Origin: Candidatus Heimdallarchaeota archaeon
GTDB lineage: Archaea; Asgardarchaeota; Heimdallarchaeia; Heimdallarchaeales; Heimdallarchaeaceae
Length of the DNA stretch: 64,000 nucleotides
Assembly: GCA_019057375.1 (NCBI GenBank)
Contig: DXJF01000011.1
Coordinates: 32,001-96,000, forward strand
Direction: 5' to 3'
Position 1 is the stretch's first letter. Each line of letters begins with the position of its first letter. Positions 36,470 through 64,000 of this stretch are shown here, in pieces. The position numbers were made by a program, and so were the translations under genes. The notes beneath the pieces were generated by a model, which did not search any database, was not told the origin of the DNA, and worked only from the letters and a program-made list of their open reading frames with translations.

Positions 36470-36610
36470 ATCTTGTCATTTAACTTAAATTGATTTGAGA
36501 TAAAAATCTTGCCAATGATAAGCAATAATTCTTACTTTGGCACATTATTCCTTGGGGCGTTTTAATAGTTTCTTTTAACTATTAGAGTAACCTTTCCTAA
36601 GAGTCGATGT

Positions 36611-36685
36611 ATGATGTACAATGAAAAAAATGACCCGGATGAAGGAGACGGAGACATTCTCCCCCCAGCATGGTCTCCAGGTTAA
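36611..36685 (+). CDS. 24-aa conserved micropeptide, copy 1 (MMYNEKNDPDEGDGDILPPAWSPG)
   Basis: Three copies, identical length, synonymous divergence, conserved ~60-bp upstream element. Confidence 0.75.
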   Translation: MMYNEKNDPDEGDGDILPPAWSPG

Positions 36686-36896
36686 TCCTCCTTCCTTTTT
36701 TGTTTTTACTCACTAAACTGCAATTAAACAACTTCTAAATTGTATTCAATCTTTGTAGATTAAATCAATCGAAGTAAGACTTTATGACTAAAATCTTTCA
36801 TTACTCACTTTATCATTCTTTTCTCTTGACATTTTTTCTTTGGGGTGTTTTAATAGTTTTGTTGAACTAGTAGAGTACCCTTTCCAAGAGTGAGAT

Positions 36897-36971
36897 ATGA
36901 TGTACGAACCAAAATATGATCCTGAAGGCGGAGACGAAGGTATTTTACCACCTATGTGGTTCCCAAACTGA
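36897..36971 (+). CDS. 24-aa conserved micropeptide, copy 2 (MMYEPKYDPEGGDEGILPPMWFPN)
   Basis: As copy 1; SD-like GAGTGA before ATG. Confidence 0.75.
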   Translation: MMYEPKYDPEGGDEGILPPMWFPN

Positions 36972-36976
36972 AAAAA

Positions 36977-37074
36977 TTTTAGTTGATGAACCTCTTTCTA
37001 TAGCTAGCTTCAATATTTTTCTTAACAAGAATTTTTATTGTAAACTAAAATTAGCTGACAATAACTCTCCTAGA
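36977..37074. repeat. 98-bp direct repeat, distal copy of the 23S trailer
   Basis: Identical to 47211-47308 except 2 substitutions; contains 24 of 25 nt of the 23S processing-stem 3' arm. Confidence 0.95.
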
Positions 37075-37151
37075 TAAGGTATTTATTTTTGAGATGATTA
37101 ACGGAAAAAGATAAATTTTGTCTTCTGTACTCTCAGTAACCATCTTAGTAT

Positions 37152-37763
37152 TTAATTCACTTGAGAGATTAATTCTTTTCTTTTAAATATTGAAGTATAT
37201 TTATTTTGAATTCGAGAAGTTGGTTTCCAATCTGAATTGTTATTATGTCCCTTAAAACTACGGTATACTATGCGTTTTCTGCCTTTACCATCAATGAAAT
37301 ATCCATTAAACAATACTTTTCCAAATTTCCAGTCAGTTGAATCTTTTGGGATTATAACTGAAACTATTTGAACATTTCCATTATCGGATTTTATCGGAAA
37401 TGCTTTCTCATCCTCATAATCTAGAGGAGGAGAACTCTCATAAGACGGATAGATTGCAATTTGTATCTGTAATTTAACTAAGATACTTATACTCCCAGGA
37501 TTTTTAAAACTAATACGAAGAAAATGTGTAACAATATCTTCAGAATAACGAGATTGTTTAAGCCCACTTTCTACAAGTTTTATCCAAAATATTGCTAATT
37601 TTGGTTCATTGAATCTAGTTTTTCTTCTTGTATAATATAAGCTAATGAATGATGCTACTAATGCACAAATAGATATAATGTCCAAGCTTTCCATTGTTTT
37701 GAGATCCCTATTTAAATTAATAGCATATATGAAATTTACAAATTGATTGAATGAAAGTAACAT
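37152..37763 (-). CDS. Hypothetical protein with N-terminal TM anchor
   Basis: MESLDIISICALVASFISLYYTRRK (likely true start is this internal Met), beta-rich remainder. Confidence 0.55.
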   Translation of the reverse strand: MLLSFNQFVNFIYAINLNRDLKTMESLDIISICALVASFISLYYTRRKTRFNEPKLAIFWIKLVESGLKQSRYSEDIVTHFLRISFKNPGSISILVKLQIQIAIYPSYESSPPLDYEDEKAFPIKSDNGNVQIVSVIIPKDSTDWKFGKVLFNGYFIDGKGRKRIVYRSFKGHNNNSDWKPTSRIQNKYTSIFKRKELISQVN

Positions 37764-37883
37764 GTTTCAGACAAACAATATATTACTCAAACGTATTTAA
37801 AACCCAAAAAAATTCTACTATAACTAGCTTCAAAATTCACTTAACAACTATTTTTAGTTCACAAAAAATAGTTGTATATTAAC

Positions 37884-39455
37884 TCAGTCATCTAGAGTTA
37901 TAAAATCCGTAAGAAGTTTCTGTTGAGTTGAAAATGTTCCATCTTTAAGTCTCTTAATATCATCTATTATTCTTGAAATTGTTTTTCTGTTTTGATTAGT
38001 AATTTTATGTTTTAATTGTTCAACAAGTTCGTCACTTGAAATTAAAACAAATTTCTTTTCAGAGTTATTCTTTGTTTGTGATTCTACGTACAAGCACCAG
38101 AATTTCACATTTTTGGCATATTGAGGATAAATAACTAAGTCTTTATGTGTTAATGCTAAGGGGGATTTTTTGACTTCTATAATTTCTAATGAACCATCAG
38201 GCTCTTCTATAAGTATTTCGGGTAATATCCAATTTCTTTCTTCAACCTCTGGCGTCTCAATCTTTGGTTGCCACTCCCATTTTTTTCCCTTAAATAGTTG
38301 TTGCGCAATTCTGTGACAAATCCTTTCCCATAGATATCCTATTATCTCTACACCACCCACTAGATTACAAGAAGGACACCCCGATTTGTTATGGACTCTA
38401 TTGTTGATTCTTGCTACCCACACATGTTTAGAATTTTTCGAACATTGCCACCACACTTCTCTGTGAGAACCTCCAATTACTTCTTCTGGTGTCAATCCTT
38501 CATTTTTTGTTGGATGCCACTCTTTTGCTATTTCTGGATAAAGAGTTTGTAGTGAATTAAATGGAGATAATCTTCTATGAGAACATATTGGACAACCTGT
38601 TTTATATGGCCCAGTTCTATGATATACTTTAGAATCCCACACATGTTTAGAATTTTTCGAACATTGCCACCACACTTCTTTATCAGATCCTGCTATTATT
38701 TTTTCAGCTGTAAGTTCTCCATTTAGTGTTGGATGTAGTTCTTTAGCTATTTCAGGAAATTTTGTAGCAAGAGAATTCGTAACTGAGACTTTTTTATTTG
38801 CACAACAAGGACATCCATAACCTCTTCTAGTTCTACTATCAATAACTGCTCTCCAAATATGATCTGGTCCTTTATCACAAATCCAATAAACTCTTCTTCC
38901 TGAACCAGGAGATACTTGATTTGGAAGAATCCCTCTATTCTTATCATAAAACCATTGAGCACCTATTTCTGGGAACAATGCTTCTAAAGATTCTTCTTCT
39001 AAAACTAGTTTTCCTGAACAATATGGACATCCTGATTTATTTATACCGCTTCTATCATTTATTTTAGCAGGCCAGTTATGTTTAGGGTTTTTCAAACATT
39101 GCCACCACACTTTTTCACTAGATTTCATAATTGCGTTTTCAGGAGTAAAATCTCCATTTTTTGTTGGATGCCATTCAGCTGCTACTTCTGGAAAGTTGAT
39201 TGCTAATGAATTTGTAACTGAAACTCTTTTACTAGCACAAAATGGGCATCCTGTAATTTTTTTTACTCCGGTTCTGTTGTTTGGACTAGTTGGCCATTCA
39301 TGGTCTGGTCCTTTCTCGCATTTCCACCAAATTGGTTGTTTGGAACCATAGGAAATATTTTCGGGTTTTAAGTTTCCATTTTTTGTTGGATGCCATTGTT
39401 TAACTAGTTCAGGAAAATCAGCAATAGTTTTAGTTTCAATTTTATTCTTTGACAT
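37884..39455 (-). CDS. Five zinc-ribbon (DUF4379-like) repeats + C-terminal PD-(D/E)XK-like nuclease
   Basis: 5x WHPTKN...VWWQC...H.W...R...GCPxC; C-terminal WILPEILI...IIEVKKS. Confidence 0.75.
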   Translation of the reverse strand: MSKNKIETKTIADFPELVKQWHPTKNGNLKPENISYGSKQPIWWKCEKGPDHEWPTSPNNRTGVKKITGCPFCASKRVSVTNSLAINFPEVAAEWHPTKNGDFTPENAIMKSSEKVWWQCLKNPKHNWPAKINDRSGINKSGCPYCSGKLVLEEESLEALFPEIGAQWFYDKNRGILPNQVSPGSGRRVYWICDKGPDHIWRAVIDSRTRRGYGCPCCANKKVSVTNSLATKFPEIAKELHPTLNGELTAEKIIAGSDKEVWWQCSKNSKHVWDSKVYHRTGPYKTGCPICSHRRLSPFNSLQTLYPEIAKEWHPTKNEGLTPEEVIGGSHREVWWQCSKNSKHVWVARINNRVHNKSGCPSCNLVGGVEIIGYLWERICHRIAQQLFKGKKWEWQPKIETPEVEERNWILPEILIEEPDGSLEIIEVKKSPLALTHKDLVIYPQYAKNVKFWCLYVESQTKNNSEKKFVLISSDELVEQLKHKITNQNRKTISRIIDDIKRLKDGTFSTQQKLLTDFITLDD

Positions 39456-39519
39456 CCAACCAGACCTTTCTTCTTCTTATTCCTGTATATCTAGAAGATT
39501 TTGCTTCTTAAAGTTAGTT

Positions 39520-39540
39520 TCTGATCGAACCAATTTCCAT
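39520..39540 (-). repeat. 21-nt copy of the 23S trailer (putative TnpB guide position)
   Basis: ATGGAAATTGGTTCGATCAGA vs ATGGAAATTGGTTCG-TCAGA at 47330-47310. Confidence 0.8.
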
Positions 39541-39597
39541 ACACATACTATGAAGCTCATCCAAGTTTATTATAACTTGAATAGTCTTGACGAGTAG

Positions 39598-41499
39598 TTA
39601 TCTCGTTCCCCTCGTATGTGGAGAGGGGGAATTTGATTTTAACAATTGCTCACCCTTATCTTTTACATTTTTTGCTGCATTTATGTGAGTATTCACCATT
39701 TTACCACACTTTTTACATTTTGCGATGTCATAAGAACCAATTTTTCTTTCGACTTTTCCTCCACAACCATTATGTTTTGTACTTGTTCCTCTTGGATTAA
39801 CATAAACAAGTTTAACCTTATATCCAAGTATTGAAGACGCTAATAATACTGCTTTTTCAAATATTTCTTGATTATCAGGCATATTGTATATTGCTTTAGC
39901 TAAAGCTCCTCTTTTTCCTCTAGGATCTATTTGAAAGTCTTCGACACAAAGTAGATTACTCTTATTTTTTACAATTTCAGCAGCAATGAAATGAGTTGCA
40001 AAATTTTTAATTTCTTCAAGAATGTTTTTCCTTCTTCTGTAGACTCTGTACAATTCTCCCTTAGTCTTAACATACCCTCTAGTGTCTTTCTTCTTTCCCT
40101 TATTCGTTAAACTATAGCTCAACTGAGGGATAATAACATTTGATAGTTTATTGTATTTTCTAGCTAGAAGCAACAAATTCTTTGATAAGGGCTCTTTGTT
40201 AGAAAGCGCAATCATATGTTCACTAACTCGGTTAATATCTACTCCTATGGATTTTACTTTCTTTGTACTCCCTTTCTTTGACAATTGCTTGAGAAGTTTT
40301 GTACTAAGAAACTTACTGGGAGTTCCTTCTATAATAACAGAAACTCTAACCTTATAGCTAGGTGAACTGTTGCTGCGAATGAGCAATGATCTAATTCGAG
40401 CTCCTTTGTTAAGATATTCTAAGATTTTCTTTGAAAAGATAAGCTTACATGTAATTCTAGGGAATCCTCTAAGAACGAATCCCAACTCGAAATACCCATC
40501 TTTTCTTGCAAGTTCCGTCATAACTTTTGAACTACCAGGTCTGAGAACAACATGTTTTGGACACATAATTAGTTGGATAGGTAATCTTCCTTTCTTTTTC
40601 TTTCTAAATGGTGGATGAACAATTTTAGTTGGGTGAGTTTTCTGAATTATTTCTATAACAGTCTTCTCTAATGTAGAGTAGAGTGCGAAGATCACTATTG
40701 CTCTTAAAGCAGAAAATAGTCTTCTATTTTTCTCACCTATTGATTCAGCAATTCTTTTACTTAAAAATTTCAAGCTTTTCCAACGAGAAGGATGTACAGT
40801 ATTATTCCACGAAGTAAGAAGAGGTGCTACAATATCCGCCTTTAAAGCTAACAAACGTAAGTTTTCTAGAAACACATTTGTTTTTGAATTGATTGGTTTT
40901 GATGTTAGTTCTAGGCATTTGGACTTATTACACTTCTGTATCGCTCTTTCGAATTCTTTCTGTGCTAAAAGTGGAAGCATAGTGTTGAATTTTAATCGTT
41001 GATTGCAAAATTTGTCTATTTGCCTTCTTGTACTGGTTAGTACATTGATTACATATAATCTCTTTACCTTCCATCTGTAGATAAGAATACTTTCAATTCT
41101 AGGACTTCTTCCAAAAATATACCATTCAATTGCTTGCTCTTTCCAATTCGACATTAAATCGAAAAATACTTCAACTTTCCTCTCTAAGGTAACTGTGCCT
41201 TTGGCTGCTAAAAATAAGTAAGTATATGCACTATCAGCAATACTAGGACTCTTCTTTGTGATTCTTTTGATGTTAGTTAAACCCACCATATTCGGCATTT
41301 TGGGTTCATTTCTTGCAATTGATAATGCAGCGTTTATTGCCTTTTTATCATGAATTAAATCTTCTTGTCTGACTTGCAAACCTTTTACTCTTTGGTTAGC
41401 TTCTTTTTCTTGTATTCTACGTTTCTCTCTAGTACCCTCAAACCTAACACCCATTTGATAAGTGCGAGTGACTAATGTTTGCTTTGTTTGAGAGGACAT
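39598..41499 (-). CDS. tnpB: Large TnpB-like RuvC protein (633 aa), no TnpA
   Basis: RuvC-I SIGVDIN, RuvC-II CVEDF, Zn finger HNGC...CKKC, RuvC-III NTHINAAKN (His at the Asp position); hairpin-rich 3' end. Confidence 0.85.
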   Translation of the reverse strand: MSSQTKQTLVTRTYQMGVRFEGTREKRRIQEKEANQRVKGLQVRQEDLIHDKKAINAALSIARNEPKMPNMVGLTNIKRITKKSPSIADSAYTYLFLAAKGTVTLERKVEVFFDLMSNWKEQAIEWYIFGRSPRIESILIYRWKVKRLYVINVLTSTRRQIDKFCNQRLKFNTMLPLLAQKEFERAIQKCNKSKCLELTSKPINSKTNVFLENLRLLALKADIVAPLLTSWNNTVHPSRWKSLKFLSKRIAESIGEKNRRLFSALRAIVIFALYSTLEKTVIEIIQKTHPTKIVHPPFRKKKKGRLPIQLIMCPKHVVLRPGSSKVMTELARKDGYFELGFVLRGFPRITCKLIFSKKILEYLNKGARIRSLLIRSNSSPSYKVRVSVIIEGTPSKFLSTKLLKQLSKKGSTKKVKSIGVDINRVSEHMIALSNKEPLSKNLLLLARKYNKLSNVIIPQLSYSLTNKGKKKDTRGYVKTKGELYRVYRRRKNILEEIKNFATHFIAAEIVKNKSNLLCVEDFQIDPRGKRGALAKAIYNMPDNQEIFEKAVLLASSILGYKVKLVYVNPRGTSTKHNGCGGKVERKIGSYDIAKCKKCGKMVNTHINAAKNVKDKGEQLLKSNSPSPHTRGTR

Positions 41500-41633
41500 A
41501 GTGTAACTGTTAATATTATATGTACTTTCATTTATAAACTGAGAAAAAAAGATGATTCTTCTTGAATTATTATTGTATTACTTCTGTACCATTTATTTTT
41601 GTTTTTTTACTCTTAATAAACAGTACATATGTT

Positions 41634-44093
41634 CTATGATAATTTTAACCAGAATTCAAAATCATCTAAAACTTTGATGTGTTTGTCTCCTACGATTACA
41701 TCTGCAAGAATTTCCAAAGGAATTTCCTCGTTATGTCCTTGGCTTTTAGCTTGAATTATATTCAGAGTGAAATCCCAATCATATGACCTTTTATTATCTA
41801 ATAACAGTTTCTTGATCTCCTTTAAACCTTTTATTCTAATCTCATCGTCATTTTCATGAGCATAAAGATAGAAGTAGTACTCTAATTCAATCGATTCTTT
41901 AAATCTTGATTTTTCTATGTACTTCATAGCTTTATCTAGGTATTCAAACCCTTCTTCCCTTCCTTGAGAAAGAAGTAAAGATGCATAATTAATCAAGTTA
42001 TTTGCATTTTCAGAATCTATCTCATTTGCTTTGTTAAAATACTTCTCAGACATTTCAAGATTCTTGAAATCATGATACATTAGCACTGCAAGTTGTCCCC
42101 AAATCTCTGCATTCTTAGGTTCAATTTTTATTGCTTTCTTCAAATGGGATTCAGCCTTTTTATAATCATTATAAATCTTAGACACGAAATATGAATAATT
42201 ATAATGACCAAATGCATTGTTTGAATCTAACTCAAGTGCCTTCTTATACATCTTTTCTGATTCTGAATAGCGTTTCACTCTTTTCTGCAGGAATATAGCA
42301 TAATAAACATAGTACGTAGAATTTTCTGGAGATTTCTCAATTGCCTCTTTTAGGTATCTCTCCGCTTTTTTATAATCTCCTAATTTCTCTGAATAAAAAT
42401 ATCCTATATCTAGAATATATTCAGCATTTTCAGGATTCAAAACTAGTGCTTGATTATAATATGAATTAGCTTTTTTGATATCCTCTCTTGAATAAGCTAG
42501 AAACCTTGCATAATTTAAAACTCCACGTGAATAATTAGGATTTGTATCAATTGTTTTTTCAAAATACTCCTCCGCTAGATTATAGTTTTTCCGAATTTTT
42601 TCTTGAAATAAAGCATAACCTTCTAAAATTGTTGGCATATTAGGAGATATTTCTAAGGCTCGTTTGTAATACTCTTCAGCCTTTTTATAGTTTTCATCAT
42701 CCTTGACAATTTCCCATAAAAAGCCTGCGTAATTACTTAGGTTTGCAGAACTGTGTGGGTTCAATTCCAATGCTAATTTGTAGAATTCTTCTGCTAATGT
42801 GTGATTCCCCACTATTCTATGCAGGAAACTTGCATAATTTACTACTAAAGCTGGAAATTTTGGGGCAACAGATAGTGCTCTTTTGTATATTTTCTTTGCC
42901 TTTTCGATGTTTAATGTAGACTGTAGGAAGAAAGCATAATTAGTTAAAAGATTGATATTATTTCCAAAGATTTTCAGACCACTTTCATAAATGTCAATGG
43001 CTTTATCAGGATTCTTCCATTTCCATTCGGCAGCCTTCAACTCAACGTATTTCCAAGCTAGTAATTCTTCGCTTAGTTCAGATAAAGCAAACGAAAAAGC
43101 TACTGAAAATTTCTTTTGTTCCTTCGGATTTTTTTGTTCAATATCTTTTGGTATCTCTCCTAATCGTTCATAAAATTGATTAATAAGTCCTTCAATTCTT
43201 TCTTTGTCTGGAAGTTTCAAAGAAAATTCCTTTAGAATCAATAGCATTAGTTCATCAAAATCTCTATGCTGTATCCATACACCATCCCTATCTTTAATCC
43301 AATTACCTAGTTTGGTGTTTGGAAACTCATTTCCTATCCAATAAACTCCCCATGGAAGAGCGCTTTCGGGGAGTTTTGAAAGAATTTCGGCTATGCTCCC
43401 GTCATTTCCACCATATCCCATGAATATAAGTCCTGTATCAGAAAGAACCTTTTGAATAGCTACTTTAGTGTTTTTTGCAAGAGTCTTAGTTTCAATTTCT
43501 GTATTTTTTGGCTCAAGTCTAGCATCACCATGAAGTTTAATGACTAAAGGTTTCACCCTCGAAGATCTTACAAAACCTGCTAAAGTGTCATGCACAATTA
43601 CAAGTGGTTTTTTATTTGTGTATAGATATAATGCATCTGCAATTAAATCATCAAAATTGACAGTCAAAGCTACATTACAATGCTTTCCATATTTTTCATC
43701 TGACATTAAACAAGAAAGGACACCATAACCAAATCCTGGATCTTTTTTATCAATTATGTTCTCAATTTCCTTTTGCCTTTCTTCAGGTTTATGAAATAAT
43801 AATTGAATTATTTTACCATAAAATAAAGCTGCTTGAGAGTCATCATAATTTGGGAGAATCTCTTTGATATTTTGAAGAGAATAATCTGCATCTTTTCCTT
43901 TTCTCTGCCTAATTAATCGAAAGAGCCATCTTTTTGCGAGTTCTCCTGCTGTTGGAATACCTGAAGAAACAGAACACCCCGCTCCAAGAAAGAACACATA
44001 TTTGCATTCTTCATAATTATCCATATTGTATTTGATTTTTCTTATGAATTCTTCAATATCCATCTTTTTTATTTCTATATTTGCTCCTTCCAT
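41634..44093 (-). CDS. SIR2-like domain + TPR array, putative antiviral NADase
   Basis: FFLGAGCSVSSGIP, TVNFDDL, IKLHGD, FMGYGG; many TPRs of type AEEYYKRALEISP. Confidence 0.85.
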   Translation of the reverse strand: MEGANIEIKKMDIEEFIRKIKYNMDNYEECKYVFFLGAGCSVSSGIPTAGELAKRWLFRLIRQRKGKDADYSLQNIKEILPNYDDSQAALFYGKIIQLLFHKPEERQKEIENIIDKKDPGFGYGVLSCLMSDEKYGKHCNVALTVNFDDLIADALYLYTNKKPLVIVHDTLAGFVRSSRVKPLVIKLHGDARLEPKNTEIETKTLAKNTKVAIQKVLSDTGLIFMGYGGNDGSIAEILSKLPESALPWGVYWIGNEFPNTKLGNWIKDRDGVWIQHRDFDELMLLILKEFSLKLPDKERIEGLINQFYERLGEIPKDIEQKNPKEQKKFSVAFSFALSELSEELLAWKYVELKAAEWKWKNPDKAIDIYESGLKIFGNNINLLTNYAFFLQSTLNIEKAKKIYKRALSVAPKFPALVVNYASFLHRIVGNHTLAEEFYKLALELNPHSSANLSNYAGFLWEIVKDDENYKKAEEYYKRALEISPNMPTILEGYALFQEKIRKNYNLAEEYFEKTIDTNPNYSRGVLNYARFLAYSREDIKKANSYYNQALVLNPENAEYILDIGYFYSEKLGDYKKAERYLKEAIEKSPENSTYYVYYAIFLQKRVKRYSESEKMYKKALELDSNNAFGHYNYSYFVSKIYNDYKKAESHLKKAIKIEPKNAEIWGQLAVLMYHDFKNLEMSEKYFNKANEIDSENANNLINYASLLLSQGREEGFEYLDKAMKYIEKSRFKESIELEYYFYLYAHENDDEIRIKGLKEIKKLLLDNKRSYDWDFTLNIIQAKSQGHNEEIPLEILADVIVGDKHIKVLDDFEFWLKLS

Positions 44094-44140
44094 TAATAAC
44101 AGATATTAATTTTCAGCTATATAAATCTGTGATAATACTA

Positions 44141-46858
44141 TTAGAGATGTTTTATTGAATCTTCATTTATTTCTCTTTTACATTTGGGACAAATAGTTTT
44201 AACTTTCATCCATTCTTGAAGATGATTGTTATGAAACGTATGACCACAATCTATTATGTAGACTAAATTTTCTTCTGCTACCATGTAATTCAAACATATT
44301 TCACACTTTCTTGTTTTCTTTCCACAGTTTAAACAAATAAGTGGTCCTCCATCCTTTACTCTTTCAAGCAAAGCATCGCAGAAGTAACAGAATAACTTTT
44401 CATCTTGCTTCTTAATATTGCCAACAGTGCTTTTCTCTTCAGTGATTTTTACCTCTTTCTTAGGATTTTCTTGTAGTCTACTCTGTTTAATTTTTCTGAG
44501 TACTACTCCTTGATTTGTGAAAAACTCTGCAAGTGAAGGTTTGCTCTGTTCCTTTTTCTGCTTTCCAAATCTCATATATCCTATAAACAATATGAAAAAT
44601 AATCCAGAAACAATAACTGACCACGGAAATAGCTTTCCAGAATTATTCTTCTTCAGATAGCTGAATAACAACCATCCAGATATAAAGAAAACATATTTTG
44701 CATATCTGAAAAGGAACTTGTTTTTACTATGAAGATCTTTGTAGAAGGTATTTGTAGAAGAGTTGACTACTACTGAAAACCAAAAGAAAGTAGAAGCAAA
44801 TAGTATGGTTGTAAAAACATTGAACGAGATTTTACCCAAGATAACAAATTCAAACCCAGTATTATCACTGTTAGCTATTGAAACTAATCTCCCAAGAATC
44901 AGAAAGAATCCCACGTTCTTCAGGATTACAAAAACAGCTGCTAATCCCAGTAATACTTTTCTCATGTTACCTAAAATACTGAAATTGAAGAAACGCTCTG
45001 TTTTAATATATCCTCCATTGAATTGAAGTTCGTATTCTTCATCATCAAGTTTTACTTTAGCATTCCTGTTTGTTTCTTTGTTTTTCTTTTCTAAATGTCT
45101 TACTAAAACAATTAATGCTATTGCATCTAGAATGAGACTAATGCTCATTAGAGTTGGTAATGAAGGTTTGAAAGGTTTTGAGTCACTGCTTGGGTTAGGA
45201 AGTTCAAAGGGGTTCGTCGGTGTGACAACTTCTTCAGAAGTAGCTGCGAGTCTGTAGCTAAGCTCCCCTATTGTAACCGATAAACCTTCACCATAGATTG
45301 ATAATATTATTTCTATTTCTTGATAACCTTGGTTAATTTCTATGATTACTCTATCATTGATCGTTTGTTTATCATTGAATGATTGAAAGAAAACCTGATT
45401 ATCGTTTATCTTAATTCGCAGATTGAATTGATCAACAGAAGAGTAAAATTCGTTGTATAAATTCAAGGAGAAAGAAAGATTGAAGGTAGTTGAAGAAGAA
45501 TCAAAATAGAAAACATCTGTGAATTTAACTGTTAAAGGTCCTGTAATTGATGTTTCATAAGTTTTTGAGGAGACCATCGTTTTTTCTAGAGTGCTATTTT
45601 CATCAAGTATAGGAACGGGCTCTATTTCAATAGTACTGGTATTGAGTAGGTAAAAAATACCCTCTCCTGTTGCTATTCCATAAACCCGAAAAGCAATATT
45701 AGAGGAGTAATTTACAGTGTAGGTATCAATAATACTTTCAGGATAGCTGAAATGAATAGCCCCTGAATAGATGACATCGGAATCCGAAAGAATTTCATAA
45801 TTTAAAATAGGTAAGATTGCTGAACCTATATAATCATAATATAACGAAATGAACAAATTCTGTTCACTAATGCTAGAAAAAGGTTTTAGTGATGATAAAT
45901 CAAAGGAATGGTCTACTGAAGGGCCATCGCAGGAAAACCAATCAAAAGATTCTTCTGGAATTTCGTCTTCGAGAAGTTGGAGTTCTCCAAACAAAGCTAT
46001 ATTAGTAAACCATATCTCATCTACACCTAGGTTAACACAGAAATAGAAACGGATTATGTTCGTCCCCTGCTCTAACGGAATAGAAAAAGAGACAATAACA
46101 AAAGGAACTTTAGAAAAACTTGTAGTAGCGATGATTGTGTTATTTATTTCTACTTCTAAATATCGAGAAAGGGCACTAAAGGAATTTGTATTAAAAGAAA
46201 GAGTTACGTTTAAAGTGGTGGAACCATTGATTGAATAAACTGCTGTTTCAACATAATCACTTCTGACACCTGAAAGATCTCCATAATAGCCTATTTGACC
46301 AGGATTACAAGGAAGGGAGGTTAAATTCTTATCAAGAACAGGAATTGTAATTGGTTCTATTGTTGATGAACTTAATATTTGAATAGCGCCAGAATTAAGG
46401 ATATTCGAAGTTTTACCTTCACATGAAATAACAATAATCATTGAACCGATGAAGTTTTGAGGATAAGAAAATGATTTAGAAATAGAGTGTTCATTAGAAT
46501 CCTGATAAATACGGTTAATGTTAATTTCTACTTCAGTAGTGTCCAAATACAAAATAATCGTTAATCCATTTGAGTCAGTCCTATCACCAGAAAAGAGAAA
46601 AAATATAGTTAAACTATTATATTCTTGAAGTTCAAGATTGACTAGTTCAAAAGTAAAATTTTGTTTTACAGAAGTTGAGTCATAAGAATACAGTATATTT
46701 TCATCTATTATAGTAGAGCTATAAATAGAAGGGGGATTAGGAACGTTATTTTGATTTCTTGCAATAGCTAAAGAACTAGTAAAACAAAAGAGTGTTAACA
46801 CTAATAACATGTTTCTAGTTGTGTTTTTCATTATCAGTTTTATAATCCGAAAATTCAT
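44141..46858 (-). CDS. Signal-peptide/ectodomain multi-TM protein with C-terminal Zn ribbon and RING-H2-like finger
   Basis: ~520-aa beta-rich ectodomain, ~5 TM helices, CEIC...CGHTFHNNH..W....CPKC; likely true start ATG 46831. Confidence 0.8.
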   Translation of the reverse strand: MNFRIIKLIMKNTTRNMLLVLTLFCFTSSLAIARNQNNVPNPPSIYSSTIIDENILYSYDSTSVKQNFTFELVNLELQEYNSLTIFFLFSGDRTDSNGLTIILYLDTTEVEININRIYQDSNEHSISKSFSYPQNFIGSMIIVISCEGKTSNILNSGAIQILSSSTIEPITIPVLDKNLTSLPCNPGQIGYYGDLSGVRSDYVETAVYSINGSTTLNVTLSFNTNSFSALSRYLEVEINNTIIATTSFSKVPFVIVSFSIPLEQGTNIIRFYFCVNLGVDEIWFTNIALFGELQLLEDEIPEESFDWFSCDGPSVDHSFDLSSLKPFSSISEQNLFISLYYDYIGSAILPILNYEILSDSDVIYSGAIHFSYPESIIDTYTVNYSSNIAFRVYGIATGEGIFYLLNTSTIEIEPVPILDENSTLEKTMVSSKTYETSITGPLTVKFTDVFYFDSSSTTFNLSFSLNLYNEFYSSVDQFNLRIKINDNQVFFQSFNDKQTINDRVIIEINQGYQEIEIILSIYGEGLSVTIGELSYRLAATSEEVVTPTNPFELPNPSSDSKPFKPSLPTLMSISLILDAIALIVLVRHLEKKNKETNRNAKVKLDDEEYELQFNGGYIKTERFFNFSILGNMRKVLLGLAAVFVILKNVGFFLILGRLVSIANSDNTGFEFVILGKISFNVFTTILFASTFFWFSVVVNSSTNTFYKDLHSKNKFLFRYAKYVFFISGWLLFSYLKKNNSGKLFPWSVIVSGLFFILFIGYMRFGKQKKEQSKPSLAEFFTNQGVVLRKIKQSRLQENPKKEVKITEEKSTVGNIKKQDEKLFCYFCDALLERVKDGGPLICLNCGKKTRKCEICLNYMVAEENLVYIIDCGHTFHNNHLQEWMKVKTICPKCKREINEDSIKHL

Positions 46859-47210
46859 TTATAAACTGAGTAAAACCATATTTACTATATCTGAATCTTG
46901 TTGGGTTTAAATAGATATTTTGCATTTCATTATTGAGATAGATGTTCGTAATTACATTCCTTAAGTCTTTAAGATCAAAGAAAAAAGGGGGACCTATTCT
47001 AGAAGAGATTCTACTTATTGGTATAGCAGTTCTTGTCTTTGCAATAATCTTTGCACTAATTTTTAGCTTAATAGATTGGTCTACATCTCCTTTTGAAGAA
47101 CTTTTCAAGTGAAGAGTTTTTTCTTTCAATTTCAAGAAACTTAGACTTTTAGTGGGTTTATAAGGGGAATTACTATATTTTCTTTGAAGCTAGCAATACG
47201 CAAGATAACA

Positions 47211-47308
47211 TTTTAGTCGATGAACCTCTTTCTATAGCTAGCTTCAATATTTTTCTTAACAAGAATTTTTATTGTAAACCAAAATTAGCTGACAATAACT
47301 CTCCTAGA
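47211..47308. repeat. 98-bp direct repeat, proximal copy (native 23S trailer)
   Basis: Matches 36977-37074. Confidence 0.95.
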
Positions 47309-47309: not shown

Positions 47310-47671
47310 TCTGACGAACCAATTTCCATTTTTCCTAACTACGCTTGAGCAATTAGTGATTGTGGGCTAAACATCTCGCCGAAGCTCGACGCGTACACCC
47401 CAATTCTATCAACCGGATCTTCTTTCCGCGCTCTCATCTATATCGAAGGTTACTGTCACCAGTCCCCTTATAGTGATACAGAGTGGGTGACTCGTTTCGA
47501 GAGTAGCTTCGAGCGTTGATGCATTCCGCTCTTATCTACGAGGGCTTAGCTACCCGGCGATACCCTTTAGGATAACCGGTACACCAGAGGCCCCAGCCGC
47601 CTGTTCCTCTCGTACTGTGGAGACTTTACTCTCAATCACCCGCCAGCACCATCAGATAGAATCCAACCTGT

Positions 47672-47826
47672 TTTGCGTGAATTTAAGCCCGAGTATTGAT
47701 CTTCGATAGAAGGGATTTCCCGTAAGGGGGGTTTACAACTATCAAAGACTTTTACATACTTGGATGAAGTTCAATTGAAGTATTACTACTATACTTCTAC
47801 AGAACTCCACTATAGCTTAAATCCAT
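47672..47826 (-). other. 155-nt BHB intron in 23S (about E. coli G2599/A2600)
   Basis: Removal restores GUGAG|ACAGG; UGUG/CGCA central helix, AGA and AAA bulges, 11-bp intron stem. Confidence 0.88.
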
Positions 47827-47975
47827 CTCACAACGGTCTAAACCCAGCTCACGTTCCCTTTTAATGGGCGAACAACCCCACTCTTGGCGGCTGAATCACC
47901 ACCAAGCTAGGAAGAGCCGACATCGAGGTAGCAAGCCGTGAGGTCGATGTGAACTCTTACCCACGACAACTCCGT

Positions 47976-48364
47976 TCAGGGCTGCGCTTGCGCTATGCGC
48001 ACATCGGCTTTAAGGATCAGTTGTCACCTGGTATAACGACATAGGCAGTTACATAATCCTTAACCTTATCTTCATGTCCTCACGCTTATTTTTGGCTCTC
48101 CATCTTTCGTGTTTATTTAGGGATTTATCTATTCTAAATGGATTTGTGACAGAAATTAGATTCACTCTGCTCAAGTTTTGTAGCCTTTTAATGGCGAAAA
48201 CTTTCGTTTCCTCACGTGGAAGAAAGACTGAAGCTATAATTAAATTCACTCAATTTTACTTTTCTGCCTCGGAAAAGATGGACTTTATCAATAAGCGTTA
48301 CAGACAGAGAGCACTCTTTGTGATAAACAATCACTTCTTCGTGATAAACACTCAGAAGCGCAGT
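47976..48364 (-). other. 389-nt intron in 23S (about E. coli A2450/A2451), BHB junctions
   Basis: Removal restores GGGGUA|ACGG; GGGG/CCCU helix, UAA and GAA bulges, CUGCGCUU/AAGCGCAG stem. Confidence 0.88.
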
Positions 48365-50934
48365 TACCCCTGGAGTAACTTTTCTGCCACCTCCGCCGCC
48401 TACTAATGGCACTGCGAAGGATCGCTAGGCCCTGCGTTAACATCTGCGAACTGTATTGGTGAGTTCACAGTCAACCGAGCTTTTGCCCTTGCACTCTTCA
48501 CCGGATTTCTGTCCCGGTTGAGCTCGGCTTTGGGCCCTCTTGATATCTTTTCAAGAGGCTACCGCCCCAGTGAAACTGCCAGGCAGGGGGTGTCCCCCTC
48601 GCAAGAGGTAAGTCGTACCAATGCGCAAGGTCAGTATTTCAAGTTCGACTCCCCTACATCCCGGAGAATGTAGGATCAGCATCTCCTGACTATGCTATGC
48701 ATGCACACCAATACAACAGCCCCTGACAGCAGTAAAGCTTCACAGGGTCTTCTCTTCCCGATGGTGCGCTCCAGACTGTTCGCTGGACTGTGGGTTCAGT
48801 AGGCTTCGGGTGGAGACAGTGGGCACCTCGTTGGTCCCTTCATGGACGTCTGTAATTAGCAGACAAGGCATTTGCCTACCTTAAGAAGCTCATAGTTAGC
48901 TCCGGCGTTTACTGGGTCTTAGCCTGGTTGAACCCAGGTTTCAATCACCAGCACCGGCCAGGATTCACTAACTGTACTAAGGCTTTCGCCCTTGCAGTTA
49001 GCTATGTTTTTATTAAACAGTCGGGTGCCCCTAGTCACTGCGACCTGGTAAGGCATACACCTTCCCAGGCATCCCTTATACCCAAGGTACGGGACTAATT
49101 TGCCGATTTCCTTCACCCGAGCTCCCCTAACACGCTTTAGCCTTCTAAGCTAGCCACACCTGTGTCGGTTCTGGGTACGGTCACGCGTAATCGTTCTCTT
49201 TGCTTTTTCATGGGCTGTTGGGGTTGATGGCAGCCAGCAACCTATGGCCGGCCTCTTCATCTATTCTTCTGGTTCTCACCTTAACGGTTCTTCCCAGAAT
49301 TCTATAATTTAACTAGGATATGCTCCTAGGCCACCTACCCACCAGCGTTAGCTCAGAGCTTGCGTCGCCGCGTCTATACGCGTGGTACAGGAATATGAAC
49401 CTGTTTCCCTTTCGAACGACTCGTTTTAAGATCGTCCTTAGGACCGACTAACCCTTGGCTGACGAACAGTGCCAAGGAACCCTTGGGCTTTCAGCGATGA
49501 GGATTCTCACCTCACTATGCTCCTACTACCACCGAGATCTGCAAATCTAATCGGTCCACTGGGAATCACTCCCCAGCTTCTGCCCAACCAGATCGCCCCC
49601 CTACCTGAGACTCTTGCGGAGTCCAAATGGGTATCGGGACCCGGTTTAGCCCCGTCCATTTTCTGAGCCCAACAACTCGATGAGTAAGCTGTTACGCTTT
49701 TTTTAACGGATAGCTGCCTCTAAGCTTACCGCCTCATTGTCTTAGTCGTTGGACGTCATTCTGTTTAACATTTAACCGGGATTTAGGGCCCTTAACCCAT
49801 TGTAGGGTTGTTCCCCTTTCGGCCATATCCCTTGCGGATACGCGCCCGTCTGTCGCCTTCTACAGCGCTTGCAAGTTCGGAGTTGGAAGGGAGGGTGAGG
49901 ATTTCACTCCCCAGAACCTCCCGTCCGTAGCTCTACCTCACAAGCCGCCTTCAGCGACGCTATCCTGTGGTGATACTTCGGGGGGAACCAGCTATCAGCA
50001 GTTTAGATTGGTCTTTTGCCACTATCCCCAACTCAGAGGAATGAATTGCATATCAATAACCCTTCAGGCCTCCACGCTCCTTTCGAAGCGCTTCACCTTG
50101 GTCAGGGATAGATCAACTGCTTTCGGGTCTTACACCTGTGACTTCACGCCCTTATCGGACGTCGCGCCTTGCCGAAGCTGCGCGCTGGTCGCTTTCGCTA
50201 CGCCACCGTATTAACTTAGGCTTGCCACAGACATAAACTCCTCGGCCCGTGTTTCAAGACGGAACGGATAACTCTGGTCCTCTCAGCTCGTACTACCACC
50301 TCACGATGGGTTCCTTCACCGAGACTCTACCCTTTCAAGCCATCCACGTCTGTTACCATGTAGTTTCAGGGACTTTTCACTCTCGTATTTCGAATACTTT
50401 TCAACTTTCACTCACGTTACTAGTGCGCTATCGGTCTAGGGGAGTATTTAGGCTTGGGAGTTAGTCCTCCCATATTTGCGCGACAAATCCAAGCCACGCT
50501 AGTCTTGATACTACTAAGCCGAGCGCTTACGTTTACGGGGTTATTACCCTCTATGACGCCCCTTTCCAGGGGCCTTCAACTTCACGCTTTCGGTCTATGT
50601 TGTAGTCAAAACACCACATCTACCTTAATTTTTCAAAAAAGGAATTCGGTTTGGCCTGTTCCGGTTTTACTCGCCGTTACTACCGGAATCACAATTGTTT
50701 TCTTTTCCTGCAGGTACTTGAATGTTTTGGTTCCCTGCGTTCCCCGCCATTACTGGCTGTTACAGTTTATTAGACTGTAACCGGAAATCCGATTCGGGAA
50801 TCTGTGGATCGTAGACTGTCTGCGTCTTCCCACAGCGTTTCGCCGCTTACCGCGCCCTTCATCGGCTCCCTAGCCGAGTCATCCACTACATGGCGTATGC
50901 ATAGTGTAGGTTACTCTAGAAATCAGTTTTCGCC

Positions 50935-52432: not shown

Positions 52433-52768
52433 ATGAAAGAAGTATTTCCGGAAGCAATAAGAAAACTACCTGAAGCAGATATTCCCATACAAGGACTTAC
52501 AGCCTTTTTATCCCAAGATAAGAATCATCAAATTGTCTTTATGCATTTCAATCAAGATGTAGAAGTTCCCGCACACTCACATGGAGCTCAATGGGGAATT
52601 GTGCTAGAAGGGGAAATAGTATTAACAATAGAGGACAATGAACAAAAATATACTAAAGGAGATCGTTTCTATATTTTGGAAGGAGAGACACATTCCGCAG
52701 AAATACATGCAGGATATGCTAGCATGGAATTTTTTGCAGATAACGATAGATACAAAGCTAAGGAATAG
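52433..52768 (+). CDS. Cupin-domain protein
   Basis: PAHSH..QWG.VLEG...GD.F.I..G..HSA. Confidence 0.88.
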   Translation: MKEVFPEAIRKLPEADIPIQGLTAFLSQDKNHQIVFMHFNQDVEVPAHSHGAQWGIVLEGEIVLTIEDNEQKYTKGDRFYILEGETHSAEIHAGYASMEFFADNDRYKAKE

Positions 52769-52780
52769 AGATAAATTAAT

Positions 52781-52855
52781 TTAAGCTGGTGACCAAAATG
52801 GTGGAGTTATGCTTTCGTCGCCATCTTCAGGATCGTATTTCGGTTCATTCATCAT
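52781..52855 (-). CDS. 24-aa conserved micropeptide, copy 3 (MMNEPKYDPEDGDESITPPFWSPA)
   Basis: Same length, motif and upstream element as the copies at 36.6 and 36.9 kb. Confidence 0.75.
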   Translation of the reverse strand: MMNEPKYDPEDGDESITPPFWSPA

Positions 52856-53035
52856 GTTCATCTCAGGAAAGGTTATCATTTTAGTTAGACAAAGCTATTA
52901 AAGCACCCCAAAGAAAAGACTGACAGTTACAGCTATTTCTGATTGGAAGAGTTGGCTAATAGATAATTGGCTTGATGAGTTTGAAAGATTAAAACCTTAT
53001 TTTCTTAATTCAGAGCAATTATGACAACTAAAAAA

Positions 53036-57237: not shown

Positions 57238-60200
57238 ATGAGAAACAGAATTTGGCTTTGTAAAATCCTCTTATTGGCTAGCATACTTTGTGGAGGCTTT
57301 CTTCTAATTAACAGTGAGGTTGAAGCTGAACCAGGATTAAGAGATGTGACAACCAATGCTTTATTACCTTATGATATTAATTTTGAATTTAACTTCTCTG
57401 GCAGTGAAGAAGTTTATAATTTGCATTCAAATCAAATTGAATTAGGAGAACTAAATAAACTCACACTTTCTTTCCGAGTAAACGGTATGAGCGGTTCTCC
57501 AGGATTAAAAATAGTGTTCATTTTCATGACTATTAAAGTTGGATTTGTTGTTGACCGAATTTTTAATGATGATACTTTACACAATTTAACTGAGACTTTT
57601 CTTTTTCCTCACAACTATTCAGGTAGTATGGATATTACTGTCATTTGTAGTGGTAGTTCAACTTCTACAAGAAATGGATTTCTTACCATATTTAATAGCA
57701 CTAAAATAGAACAAATGAATATTCCCACAATATCAGAGGATTCTTTTTCTCTTCCAACTTCCCAGGATTGGGTGATGTTCAAAGGTAATATATATTCTTG
57801 GAATAGAGGAGGAATTACATCTGCTTTTTACAATTACGATGAAATGGCACTAGTAAGTCTTAACATATCCTTCTCTTCAAATTATTTTCAGTCAATAGAA
57901 AATGTAGTTGAAATTTCTTTAAATGGTAATTTTGTTGCAGAAGATTATTTCATTGAAGATTTAAGTAATAATATTGATATTCAATTTCAACCTGAAATAG
58001 GTTTGAATCTCTTATCATTGAATTTCTCTGTTTCTTATTCCTTTAATCCAATTTATATTTCAAATATCTCTCTTTTTGGCTCTCTTTTTAATTATGAATC
58101 TAGCAGTTCTACTTCAGATTCATTTAGTTGGGAAAGTGGTTTTTTTTCCTACTCTTTTGATTTATCTACGTTAAAACCCCCTGGGTACTATTCAGAACAA
58201 GTTCTTCACTTAACAATCAATTACCAATGTTTCGGAATGAAAATCTCTTCAGGAATAAACTATTTTCTAAAAATAGGGACATCTATTCTCGAGGAAGGAA
58301 CCATAAGCTATCTCGAGCAAATGTATGAGAATAATAGTTTAAAGATCGAGACCTTTACTACGGAATATCACAACCCTCTTACGTTTAAAATTTTCGGCAC
58401 TTCGAATGGGGTGGGAGGACTTACTATTTTAAATTCAAGTACGATTGAAATATCTCACATAGGTGAGCTAACAAAACAACCTTTGAGTAGAACCATAGCA
58501 GATGAAAGAAGTGTTAATGGTCCTTCTCTTGCTGTTTCGCTTAGTTTTTATGATGTCTTTCAAACTTATAGGATTGCAGCTCCTGTACAATTAGCTGTTA
58601 ATTTTAATACAGTTTCTACTTATGAACATCCCTTTGATTTACTTACAGTAACAGTCAAAATTGATGGTGTAAGAGTAATATCAAAAAATGTTCATATTCT
58701 CGGTTTTGCAAATTTTAGTAAAGAATTTTCCTTAGAACATGGGTATCACGAAGTTAGAATAAATTTCCAATTTTCTGGCATTAATACTCCTCTCACAGTA
58801 GAACAATTGAAGTACCAACTAGCTTTACAAATTGAAGAAGAAATTACTGTCTCAACAGCACTCTCTTATGCTCGTCAATCAACATTCTATCTTCTAGCCT
58901 TTTACGCCCTCCTCTATGTCCTTCTAGATGTTAAAGAAATAAATCGAGAGAGAATCAAGGAAAAAGAAAGTTCTATTCGTGAAGATTCTATCGAAGATGC
59001 AAATGATGACTCTAGGAATTTATTACGTACGGCTCTCATGGTTGTTGTAAATATATCTATTAATTTGACTCCTTCTGTTTTCTTCTTGTTGCATGGAATT
59101 AATTACTGGTTTATTTTACCCTTAAGCTTCTTTGTAGCTTTACATTTCAGTATCAAAATTCTCTTTTCGAATTTTTCGAAAGATGCAATAGTTGGGTTTT
59201 GGAACAAAACAAGAGACTTCTTTAGAGATATCTATTCCCTCTCAGGCTTTCTTAATAAAGTTACAAGATCATTCGGAAAACTCTCTTTTAGAAGCTTAAC
59301 TAGATTATTGGTCTTCGCTATAGCTTTTCTGAGCTTTGGCTTATTGTTTTTCTTGGCAGATAATATTCCTTCAAATGCTGTCAAGGAAGTCTGGATTGTC
59401 TATGCTCTTTTGCTAGTTTGTATTGTTATATCCTCTCTTACTTTATTCTACACCCTTCATTTAGTTAGAGACATGGCTTTTATAGAGGACAATCTGAAAA
59501 GAATAAAGAGGTTAGGTTATGCTTCCATCACACTTGTTGCTGGTTTTCTATTTGTTCTTATCAGCATGTTAGGCACTAAACTCAGTCTTTCAAGCATCTG
59601 GGGTTTCCTTTCTCCAATCCTCCTTTTTGGTATTTTTCGTACAACAACTAAACTAGGAAAGATTTCTGCCAAAGAAGAAAAGCTCTCCTTTGACGATTTT
59701 CTGGATAAAGGAATGTTCTTCACTGATAAGAAGGAGATGCGAAAAGCTGTCAGTTTTGGTATCAATACTCGCTCTACTTGGGAAAAGAAAGGGTATGAAC
59801 TCCAGAAACATCAGATAAAAGGTGTTATCGCTTACGATTACAACCCTGGAGATAAGATCAATCTCTATGAACTGGCTGAGAAGATTAAACTCCCCTTTAA
59901 GAAAACAGAGGAACTTGTTCAGGAGATAGAAAAAGAAGTTCCTAGATTAGGAAAATATGACCCTCAATCTAAAATCTATACCAAGAGCAAAGAGAATATT
60001 ATAGAAGCTCAGGAAATTCAGGAAAAAATTGTTCCAGATAAATATGAAAATGAAGAAAAGAATGTAGAGATGAGTAAAATACCAACAAAGAATATTTCTA
60101 CAAAAGAAAGATTTCAGAAGCTGCTTGAAGAGGTAGTAGGAGAGAGTGACGAGGAGAAGAGGAGAACTCTAGAATATGTGAATCATTTGACAGCTAAAGA

Positions 60201-62181: not shown

Positions 62182-62207
62182 TATTCAATTTGGGTGAAAT
62201 AAAAAAG

Positions 62208-62266
62208 CCCCCAAAGAATACAAGAACCCCGAGAGAATGACACTACAGAAATAGAGAATATAAGGG
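62208..62266 (-). repeat. R3: native 16S trailer incl. 3' arm of the leader-trailer stem
   Basis: 62239-62258 pairs with leader 63973-63994 (7 bp, 2-nt bulge, 13 bp). Confidence 0.85.
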
Positions 62267-62351
62267 GACTTCTTTCGAAGCCAGAGTTGGTCATAACAAG
62301 GCCTAAAAACAGGCCCTGCATGATCAAGGAATCCTTGAAGGATTCCAAACG

Positions 62352-63863
<1,512 letters not shown>

Positions 63864-64000
63864 CCTGATTCGATTATGATACGATCTATTTGCTATCTTC
63901 CATGAATTGAACTATTTTAGCGCACATACACGTACTAGTGTTTTTGTACATACTAAATTTTGTTCCTTAAAATTCTCTAAATTTCTGTAGCATCAGAACA

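Follow-up and report, generated by a model that had tools for sequence, protein, structure and literature searches.

The window, by which we mean the whole 64,000-nucleotide stretch analysed here (contig C12:32001-96000), comes from a Heimdallarchaeota archaeon with a G+C content of 33% and carries the three micropeptide genes whose positions are collected in Table 1. When we re-read the sequence, the three open reading frames (ORFs) of 24 codons, their translations and their TAA, TGA and TAA stop codons were all as the initial annotation had given them. Copies 2 and 3 encode canonical members of the peptide family described below; copy 1 has asparagine at residue 7, a position held by Y or F in 59 of 60 homologues, and this residue may be a first sign of relaxed constraint. 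A second in-frame ATG lies 6 nt upstream of the copy 3 start (52861), so that its product could be 26 aa long. A cupin gene (52433-52768) converges on copy 3, the two stops being 12 nt apart. When the three loci are aligned, similarity ends at the stop codon.

All three ORFs had been placed at the distal ends of "rRNA arrays", a description that does not hold. The window contains a single LSU rRNA gene and, apart from it, a single SSU rRNA gene; copy 3 lies 1.9 kb, and copies 1 and 2 lie 10.4 kb, from the LSU gene. The link between the peptide genes and rRNA is positional only.

Table 1. Positions of the micropeptide genes, their signals and neighbouring features in the window
Feature	Position	Strand	Remarks
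Promoter block, copy 1	36539-36596	+	TATA-like TTTAATAG at 36561-36568, 50 nt before the ATG, then ACTATTAGAGTAACCTTTCC; nhmmer E 5.8e-14
Micropeptide gene, copy 1	36611-36685	+	24 codons, product MMYNEKNDPDEGDGDILPPAWSPG, stop TAA; orphan; N7 where Y/F otherwise
T-rich tract TTTTTTGTTTTT	36696-36707	+	10 nt after the copy 1 stop
Promoter block, copy 2	36830-36884	+	TTTAATAG at 36849-36856, 48 nt before the ATG
Micropeptide gene, copy 2	36897-36971	+	24 codons, product MMYEPKYDPEGGDEGILPPMWFPN, stop TGA; orphan
10.3-kb block in place of the TPR gene after copies 1 and 2	36972-47272	-	Synteny with G009:C23 (L035); Pfam, PADLOC
SIR2-TPR protein	41634-44093	-	Matches PADLOC pAgo-associated SIR2 models, E 2e-35
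LSU rRNA gene	47333-50910	-	Context; separate from the SSU rRNA gene at 62353-63863
Micropeptide gene, copy 3	52781-52855	-	24 codons, product MMNEPKYDPEDGDESITPPFWSPA, stop TAA; orphan
Promoter block, copy 3	52867-52923	-	TTTAATAG is the reverse complement of 52895-52902; nhmmer E 4.4e-11
STAND NTPase, 1045 aa	53186-56323	-	Pfam nSTAND_NTPase5; sits where G009 has a further peptide and TPR cassette

A peptide family under purifying selection

The peptide family has seven copies in the source genome (profile E values from 1e-13 to 5e-9), all clustered on a single contig within 60 kb. The four further copies, on the same contig but outside the window, came to light when the whole assembly was searched with nhmmer and scanned for the motif in six frames; they encode 22-23 aa, differ from the window copies by whole-codon indels and, in one case, keep the ORF behind an unrelated upstream region. 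With a profile built from the seven copies, we searched 24 other genomes of the genus and found between 1 and 20 copies in 22 of them; these sister records are MAGs labelled Candidatus Heimdallarchaeota, AB_125 included. Nearly all of these hits are open frames of 21-25 codons, with one internal stop among the ~150 hits listed. Across 16 genomes of other genera in the order, the best profile match had an E value of ~0.5, and a wider profile added a second genus of the same family and nothing more.

The peptides are acidic and share the core (Y/F)DPxxGDxx(I/L)xPPx(W/Y)xP. In 60 homologous cores of 17 codons each, the first, second and third codon positions have diversities of 0.165, 0.191 and 0.56. 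Read in the proposed frame, these cores give a pN/pS of 0.28, compared with 2.06 and 1.13 when the frame is shifted; the three window copies alone give 0.31. All four proline codons are in use at the invariant prolines. The way the homologues were collected, by filtering on motif and profile, accounts for part of the apparent invariance of D, P, PP, W and P, but not for the synonymous saturation. The family has also escaped annotation. The exact peptides are not found in a collection of 15 billion proteins, the three independent assemblies that cover the copy 1-2 locus all leave it without a called gene, and a six-frame motif search of the source genome found the motif inside none of its larger proteins.

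These ORFs are coding and constrained. The initial annotation had called them an unannotated micropeptide family under purifying selection, had suggested dN/dS on homologues as a check and had named frameshifted homologues without codon-position bias as the pattern that would speak against it. Run as pN/pS, the check falls below 1 only in the proposed frame; the indels are in frame and the third position is about three times more diverse than the first two. The proposal is thereby borne out by the profile search, the codon-position diversity, the pN/pS values and the absence from the protein collection, and the synonymous codon variation that it had noted at conserved residues extends across the 60 homologues. 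The residues that it listed as invariant do form a conserved core, but the absolute invariance claimed for W21 fails, the orthologous pair in the sister genome G009 having tyrosine there.

The same data bear on the notion that a promoter, small RNA or repeat is what is conserved here and that the open frame is incidental, which we find scarcely credible. The upstream block is indeed more conserved than the synonymous sites of the ORF, but neither the excess of third-position diversity nor the confinement of pN/pS values below 1 to a single frame suits such an element, and copies with a different upstream region keep the ORF. We also rejected a structured RNA: the predicted transcripts fold like their shuffles (z = 0.39, -0.42 and 0.41), with no structure above these controls, and no Rfam family matches.

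Promoter, start and termination signals

The upstream element that the initial annotation had seen to be shared by the three ORFs is real, and alignment and nhmmer extend it to a block of ~58 nt common to all three loci. The block contains TTTAATAG 48-50 nt before the ATG, followed by a conserved ACTATTAGAGTAACCTTTCC. Within the whole genome it stands solely before peptide genes, at five of the seven copies, and a genome search for the block elsewhere, as the mark of a wider regulon, returned peptide genes only. Closer to the start codon, the family has an SD-like GAGnTGA a few nt before the ATG that is complementary to the 16S 3' end GGATCACCTCCT; at copy 2 the SD-like GAGTGAG lies 3 nt before the ATG.

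Downstream, a T5+ tract occurs within 80 nt of the stop codon in 53 of 64 family copies (median distance 12 nt) against a background of 30%. The T-rich tract that follows copy 1 has the form of an archaeal oligo-T terminator. Copy 3 has lost both the downstream T-tract and the spacer.

Cassettes of a peptide gene and a TPR gene

Arrays in the sister genomes are built of peptide genes in alternation with ~1.6-kb genes, a pattern that can repeat as many as five or six times. These genes encode TPR proteins of ~525-560 aa overall, which fall into class A and a diverged class B of ~560 aa. Among the 80 best-scoring class-A copies (525-533 aa), drawn from 25 genomes, 71 have peptide genes on the same strand directly upstream at a median gap of 114 nt; 46 have one such gene, 18 have two and 7 have three, so that 25 of the 71 are tandem. 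An independent second sample yielded an upstream peptide gene for 47 of 52 TPR genes. The recurrent unit is a cassette made up of an upstream peptide gene and the gene of a soluble, all-TPR, Rap-like protein, although the relation of peptide to TPR gene is not strictly one to one, because intact orphans occur and a single TPR gene can have two or three peptide genes.

The two partners also share a distribution. The TPR protein is present in 27 of 30 genomes of the family and absent from all 52 that represented other families of the class, and genomes without the peptide either lack the TPR protein too or have a fragment only. It is a rare protein (78 matches at E < 1e-10 in a library of 1.84 billion representatives) whose gene number ranges from 0 to 12 per genome. 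The source genome has only two TPR paralogues, of 524 aa at L001:6563-8134 and of 558 aa at L002:867-2540, one per class and both beside peptide genes. Two TPR genes in sister genomes, G019:C82:9122-10692 and G042:C1:63499-65054, belong to decaying cassettes: they contain 4-9 internal stops and the peptide gene is still adjacent.

Class B differs in layout. Its peptide gene is often convergent on the 3' side of the TPR gene, and the TPR gene usually adjoins that of a divergent 942-aa protein, an arrangement that we traced in at least 16 genomes of the genus. The 942-aa protein has two N-terminal membrane segments and a HerA/FtsK/TrwB-type P-loop (L002:2850-5678 = C12:98850-101675); this HerA/FtsK-like ATPase is a candidate translocase of the system. 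The class-B module of the source genome sits directly beside the ribosomal protein L1-L10-L12 genes; cdc6/orc1 and the gene of RNA polymerase subunit D are neighbours of other cassettes.

Peptide gene and TPR gene appear, from the signals between them, to be separate transcription units. Of 47 spacers, 39 have a T5+ tract shortly behind the peptide stop and 36 have a TATA-like box of the TPR gene's own, ~38 nt before its ATG; both signals point against a shared cis transcript of micro-ORF and TPR gene. Some of the spacers (L036:2231-2347, L040 and L035) contain a direct repeat, ACTGCAAT, 3 nt, ACTGCAAT, with an 11-bp period, and a single ACTGCAAT unit remains after window copy 1 (36713-36730). 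The tandem repeat could be an operator.

Four roles had been floated for the peptides in the initial annotation, namely RiPP precursor, signalling peptide, ribosome-stalling peptide and defence modulator. Of these, the role of signalling peptide or ligand agrees best with the data, the RiPP and stalling roles are disfavoured, and a defence modulator keeps some plausibility, with cassettes that swap places with SIR2 and STAND genes. The initial annotation had no view of the cassette, in which the peptide gene forms the upstream half and the gene of a Rap-like TPR protein the other. For a RiPP precursor, a peptide modified post-translationally with the TPR protein as recognition or scaffold factor for the modifying enzyme, one could cite the short ORF, the conserved core rich in Pro, Trp, Asp and Gly, and a conserved partner gene adjacent in many diverged copies. 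Such a precursor is nevertheless very improbable here: the neighbourhood check for radical-SAM enzymes, ATP-grasp enzymes and peptidases that accompanied the idea found none recurring in the window and eight arrays, nor did Pfam return YcaO, lanthipeptide synthetase or P450 genes as recurrent neighbours there, and the peptide, which is conserved from end to end, has no leader/core split.

Loss of the TPR genes from the window

The sister genome G009, 94-97% identical to the source genome in the flanking genes, retains the cassettes that the window has lost. On its contig C23 (L035) the order is pyrophosphatase, two peptide genes, a 1.6-kb TPR gene and the LSU rRNA flank, and two more peptide and TPR cassettes lie on the other side of the LSU gene. 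This is the general arrangement in the sister genomes, where cassettes directly flank rRNA genes and the LSU gene is flanked on both sides. After copies 1 and 2 of the window, the place of the TPR gene is taken by a 10.3-kb block that encodes a 203-aa unknown protein, a DUF4379 zinc-finger protein, a TnpB-like protein, the SIR2-TPR protein, a 905-aa RING-finger protein and a 106-aa ORF. Because it is absent from so close a sister genome, this SIR2/TnpB block looks like a recently acquired defence or mobile island. The companions of the SIR2-TPR gene at 39598-41499, 37884-39455 and 44141-46858 are, in that order, the TnpB-like gene, the gene of a protein with five DUF4379 treble-clef zinc fingers and the gene of the 905-aa protein, whose RING is C-terminal.

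At copy 3 the TPR gene has been deleted: G009 and G001 both have a TPR gene between the peptide gene and a conserved flank, which in G001 includes the cupin gene. The STAND NTPase gene that occupies the site of a further G009 cassette is bounded by synteny breakpoints (L035 46-196 = window 56789-56633; L035 2093-2355 = window 53057-52793), and the NTPase has no PADLOC match. A search of the window with an unfiltered profile returned no remnant of a TPR gene, the best E value being 1.3. All three window copies are orphans whose partner TPR genes have been lost, and the identity of 94-97% in the flanks of the sister genome dates this loss as recent. The copy 1-2 arrangement is not an assembly artefact, because three independent assemblies from different samples carry it identically, with 0 mismatches over 691 nt.

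Two further comparisons illustrate how these loci change. The G009:C23 peptides that are positionally orthologous to copies 1 and 2, L035:11290-11361 (-) and L035:11632-11703 (-), end in PPLYFPN and PPMYFPN. Identity between the window and G009 drops from ~94% to ~77% in the first codons of the copy 1 ORF, which suggests recombination inside the peptide gene. In G001:C8 (L036:4322-8220, compared with window 62131-63999), a complete cassette has been inserted immediately at the SSU rRNA 3' end, between sequences that in the window are separated by only 47 nt.

What the orphans now do is a question apart from the reality of the family. They might be relics of destroyed cassettes, functionless and not yet decayed, as the loss of the TPR gene at both loci without remnant, its recent date, the asparagine of copy 1 and the missing T-tract and spacer of copy 3 would allow. 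We think this doubtful, if worth serious consideration, given that each of the three copies keeps an intact ORF, promoter block and SD-like box, that the copy 1-2 locus is identical in three assemblies and that pN/pS among the three copies stays low; the 524-aa and 558-aa TPR proteins, moreover, remain in the genome as possible partners in trans.

Predicted fold of the TPR protein and its co-variation with the peptide

The TPR proteins have no family in Pfam, PADLOC or a PDB sequence profile. AlphaFold (AF2) models the protein as an all-helical TPR solenoid (pLDDT 87, pTM 0.84), for which plain Foldseek returns generic TPR scaffolds only, NprR among them, with TM scores up to 0.60. Rap chains align from their first residues, and over nearly their full length, to model residues 15-384. 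The predicted fold is Rap-like. The archaeal protein carries a highly conserved extra segment of ~140 aa at its C-terminus, and an HTH was found neither by Pfam nor in the models.

To the extent that related, non-independent (kin-confounded) pairs allow, distances between peptides and distances between TPR proteins correlate unevenly along the TPR protein: over five segments from N- to C-terminus, Mantel r is 0.20, 0.39, 0.62, 0.63 and 0.36. Partial r reaches 0.40-0.41 in the two central segments only and is ~0 in the N-terminal fifth. Mere linkage would favour the N-terminal segment, which is encoded nearest the peptide gene, yet that segment has the weakest correlation. Peptide variation thus appears to track the central TPRs. 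In the G009 cassette, both peptides share the W-to-Y change.

We set aside one further argument, charge complementarity (TPR +5.3 and peptide cores -4.8 on average), since the excess positive charge does not lie in the co-varying central segments. A complex prediction for the 524-aa TPR protein and its adjacent 22-aa peptide, encoded at L001:6355-6420, scored 0.02 against a mark of 0.32, with a tool that is uncalibrated for chains of fewer than 30 residues; the score speaks neither for nor against binding.

Leader peptides and conflict modules as alternatives

The position of the ORF immediately upstream of the TPR gene, on the same strand, in most class-A cassettes is also what one would expect of a cis-acting leader or arrest peptide whose stalling at PPxWxP-stop controls read-through or translation of the TPR gene. 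Such a peptide would be consistent with the conservation of PPxWxP at the C-terminus and with the stop codon that in many copies follows a Pro directly or after one more residue; the T-tract, too, begins within reach of a terminating ribosome. TnaC, the leader peptide of the E. coli tna operon, SecM, the E. coli secretion-monitor arrest peptide, and CMV uORF2 offer obvious parallels in their ~24 codons, their Trp and Pro near the C-terminus, their Pro-stop or near-stop and their place upstream of another gene. Unlike their settings, however, the downstream TPR gene has its own TATA-like promoter, every peptide gene has its own promoter block, and peptide genes occur in tandem, in convergent orientation to or downstream of class-B TPR genes, and as intact orphans with no downstream gene on their strand. 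The acidic N-terminal half of the peptide is conserved as well, and its variation tracks the central TPRs of the partner protein, which a function in the ribosome tunnel does not predict. We judge a leader peptide to be distinctly unlikely.

A second alternative shares with our preferred ligand reading the binding of peptide to TPR protein, and differs in purpose. The cassettes would be a conflict module for defence, addiction or kin discrimination, with the TPR protein as sensor or effector scaffold, the peptide as inhibitor or self-marker, and the whole as fast-turnover cargo of variable islands, not as a means of physiological signalling. Several observations are of that kind: the cassettes share hot spots with the SIR2-TPR/TnpB block and the STAND NTPase gene, as the comparison with the 94-97% identical sister reveals; TPR genes vary from none to a dozen per genome and include several pseudogenes with multiple stops; insertion sites vary between genomes, as at the SSU rRNA 3' end in G001; and the nearest structural matches from the ESM Atlas are TPR sensor arms that belong to NACHT, kinase and CHAT proteins. 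Neither TPR paralogue, however, matches any PADLOC model; only the SIR2-TPR protein nearby, which is unrelated, does so. Domains of nuclease, toxin or NTPase type are neither part of class-A cassettes nor consistently beside them, and orphan peptides and peptide-less TPR genes are tolerated. A conflict module strikes us as an unlikely purpose for these genes.

A proposed peptide-receptor system and its relatives

We lean, with some reserve, towards a role of the peptide as a ligand that its cognate TPR protein recognises. Each micro-ORF would be transcribed and translated alone, from a TATA-like promoter ~50 nt upstream and an SD-like box, as a product of 22-24 codons that is usually followed by an oligo-T tract. 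The peptide would then bind the concave central TPRs of its cognate protein, in a groove expected at model residues ~210-420, and binding would switch the action of that protein through its conserved C-terminal TPR cap, much as Phr peptides act with Rap proteins. Both the physical binding and its effect are inferred. The many diverged cassettes of a genome could in this way act as separate channels, and the orphan copies of the window may act in trans on the two remaining TPR proteins or may be beginning to decay.

The nearest counterparts of such a system are the Rap-Phr pairs of Bacillus, its plasmids and phages, together with the RRNPP transcription factors NprR-NprX, PlcR-PapR, Rgg-SHP, PrgX-cCF10 and AimR-AimP. 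The archaeal cassettes resemble them in that a cognate peptide gene lies beside the receptor gene (71 of 80 and 47 of 52 in our two samples). The archaeal TPR protein has no detectable sequence homology with Rap and carries the extra C-terminal segment; its peptide gene lies upstream with a promoter of its own, whereas phr genes lie downstream of and overlap rap; and the cassettes belong to an Asgard archaeon, not to the Bacillota. The peptides differ too. Phr-type peptides are exported and processed to 5-10 aa, a feature that we do not find here: the archaeal peptides are 22-24 aa long and strongly acidic, with no signal peptide or obvious processing site. Their N-terminus is MMYEPKYDP-like, conservation runs over the full length, and a hydrophobic N-terminal stretch occurs in 0 of 62 aligned peptides. 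Because the peptides have neither signal sequence nor hydrophobic stretch, the secreted-pheromone route of RRNPP systems does not apply as such. Since no sequence homology, export signal or output domain was recognised, and since gene order and domain of life differ, we would not at present count the cassettes among the RRNPP systems.

A different likeness is to eukaryotic TPR scaffolds that recognise short linear motifs. These include an APC/C subunit (chain O, which we take to be APC5), kinesin light chain with its tryptophan-acidic cargo peptides, LGN, Tom70/71 and TSK-H3.1. Their ligands are motifs inside larger proteins, whereas the ligand proposed here is a free-standing gene product, and we see no evidence of common descent. 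Full-text literature searches on archaeal and Asgard small proteins, TPR proteins, RRNPP systems and peptide quorum sensing turned up no description of an archaeal peptide-receptor gene pair, and the pairing of peptide and TPR protein looks like an undescribed system of this kind.

The peptide genes are invisible to gene callers. If their products bind the neighbouring Rap-like TPR proteins, then Asgard archaea hold a large, fast-evolving set of matched ligands and receptors, in pairs small enough for direct biochemistry with a synthetic 22-mer and one soluble protein. What the window contributes is the orphan state and the exchange of cassettes for defence-type genes, together with the segment-wise co-variation seen in its genus. 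The window amounts to a natural experiment, in which one population has just lost the receptors of two cassettes, kept the peptide genes and received defence-type genes in exchange; it is relevant both to a possible action of the peptides in trans and to the nature of the cassette loci.

A bolder reading would have the Heimdallarchaeaceae own a peptide code. Acidic peptides of 22 aa, diverged and numbering dozens, would have matched Rap-like TPR proteins as their respective readers, and a membrane-anchored ATPase of HerA/FtsK type, able to move peptide or DNA across the membrane, would be coupled to at least one module. The whole would serve cell-cell or self/non-self signalling, independent of the bacterial RRNPP systems and built on a Trp-acidic motif like those that eukaryotic TPR scaffolds read. 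Taken together, this is a speculation that we regard as improbable; if true, it would place peptide signalling in the archaeal lineage closest to eukaryotes.

Other features of the window

An ORF of 1647 aa without a Pfam match (57238-62181, +) lies between the STAND NTPase gene and the SSU rRNA gene. The LSU and SSU rRNA genes are unlinked, and the LSU match spans 3578 nt against an archaeal model of 2987 positions, leaving ~590 nt extra. Large LSU expansion segments have been reported for Asgard archaea, and the extra length could represent such segments or an insertion.
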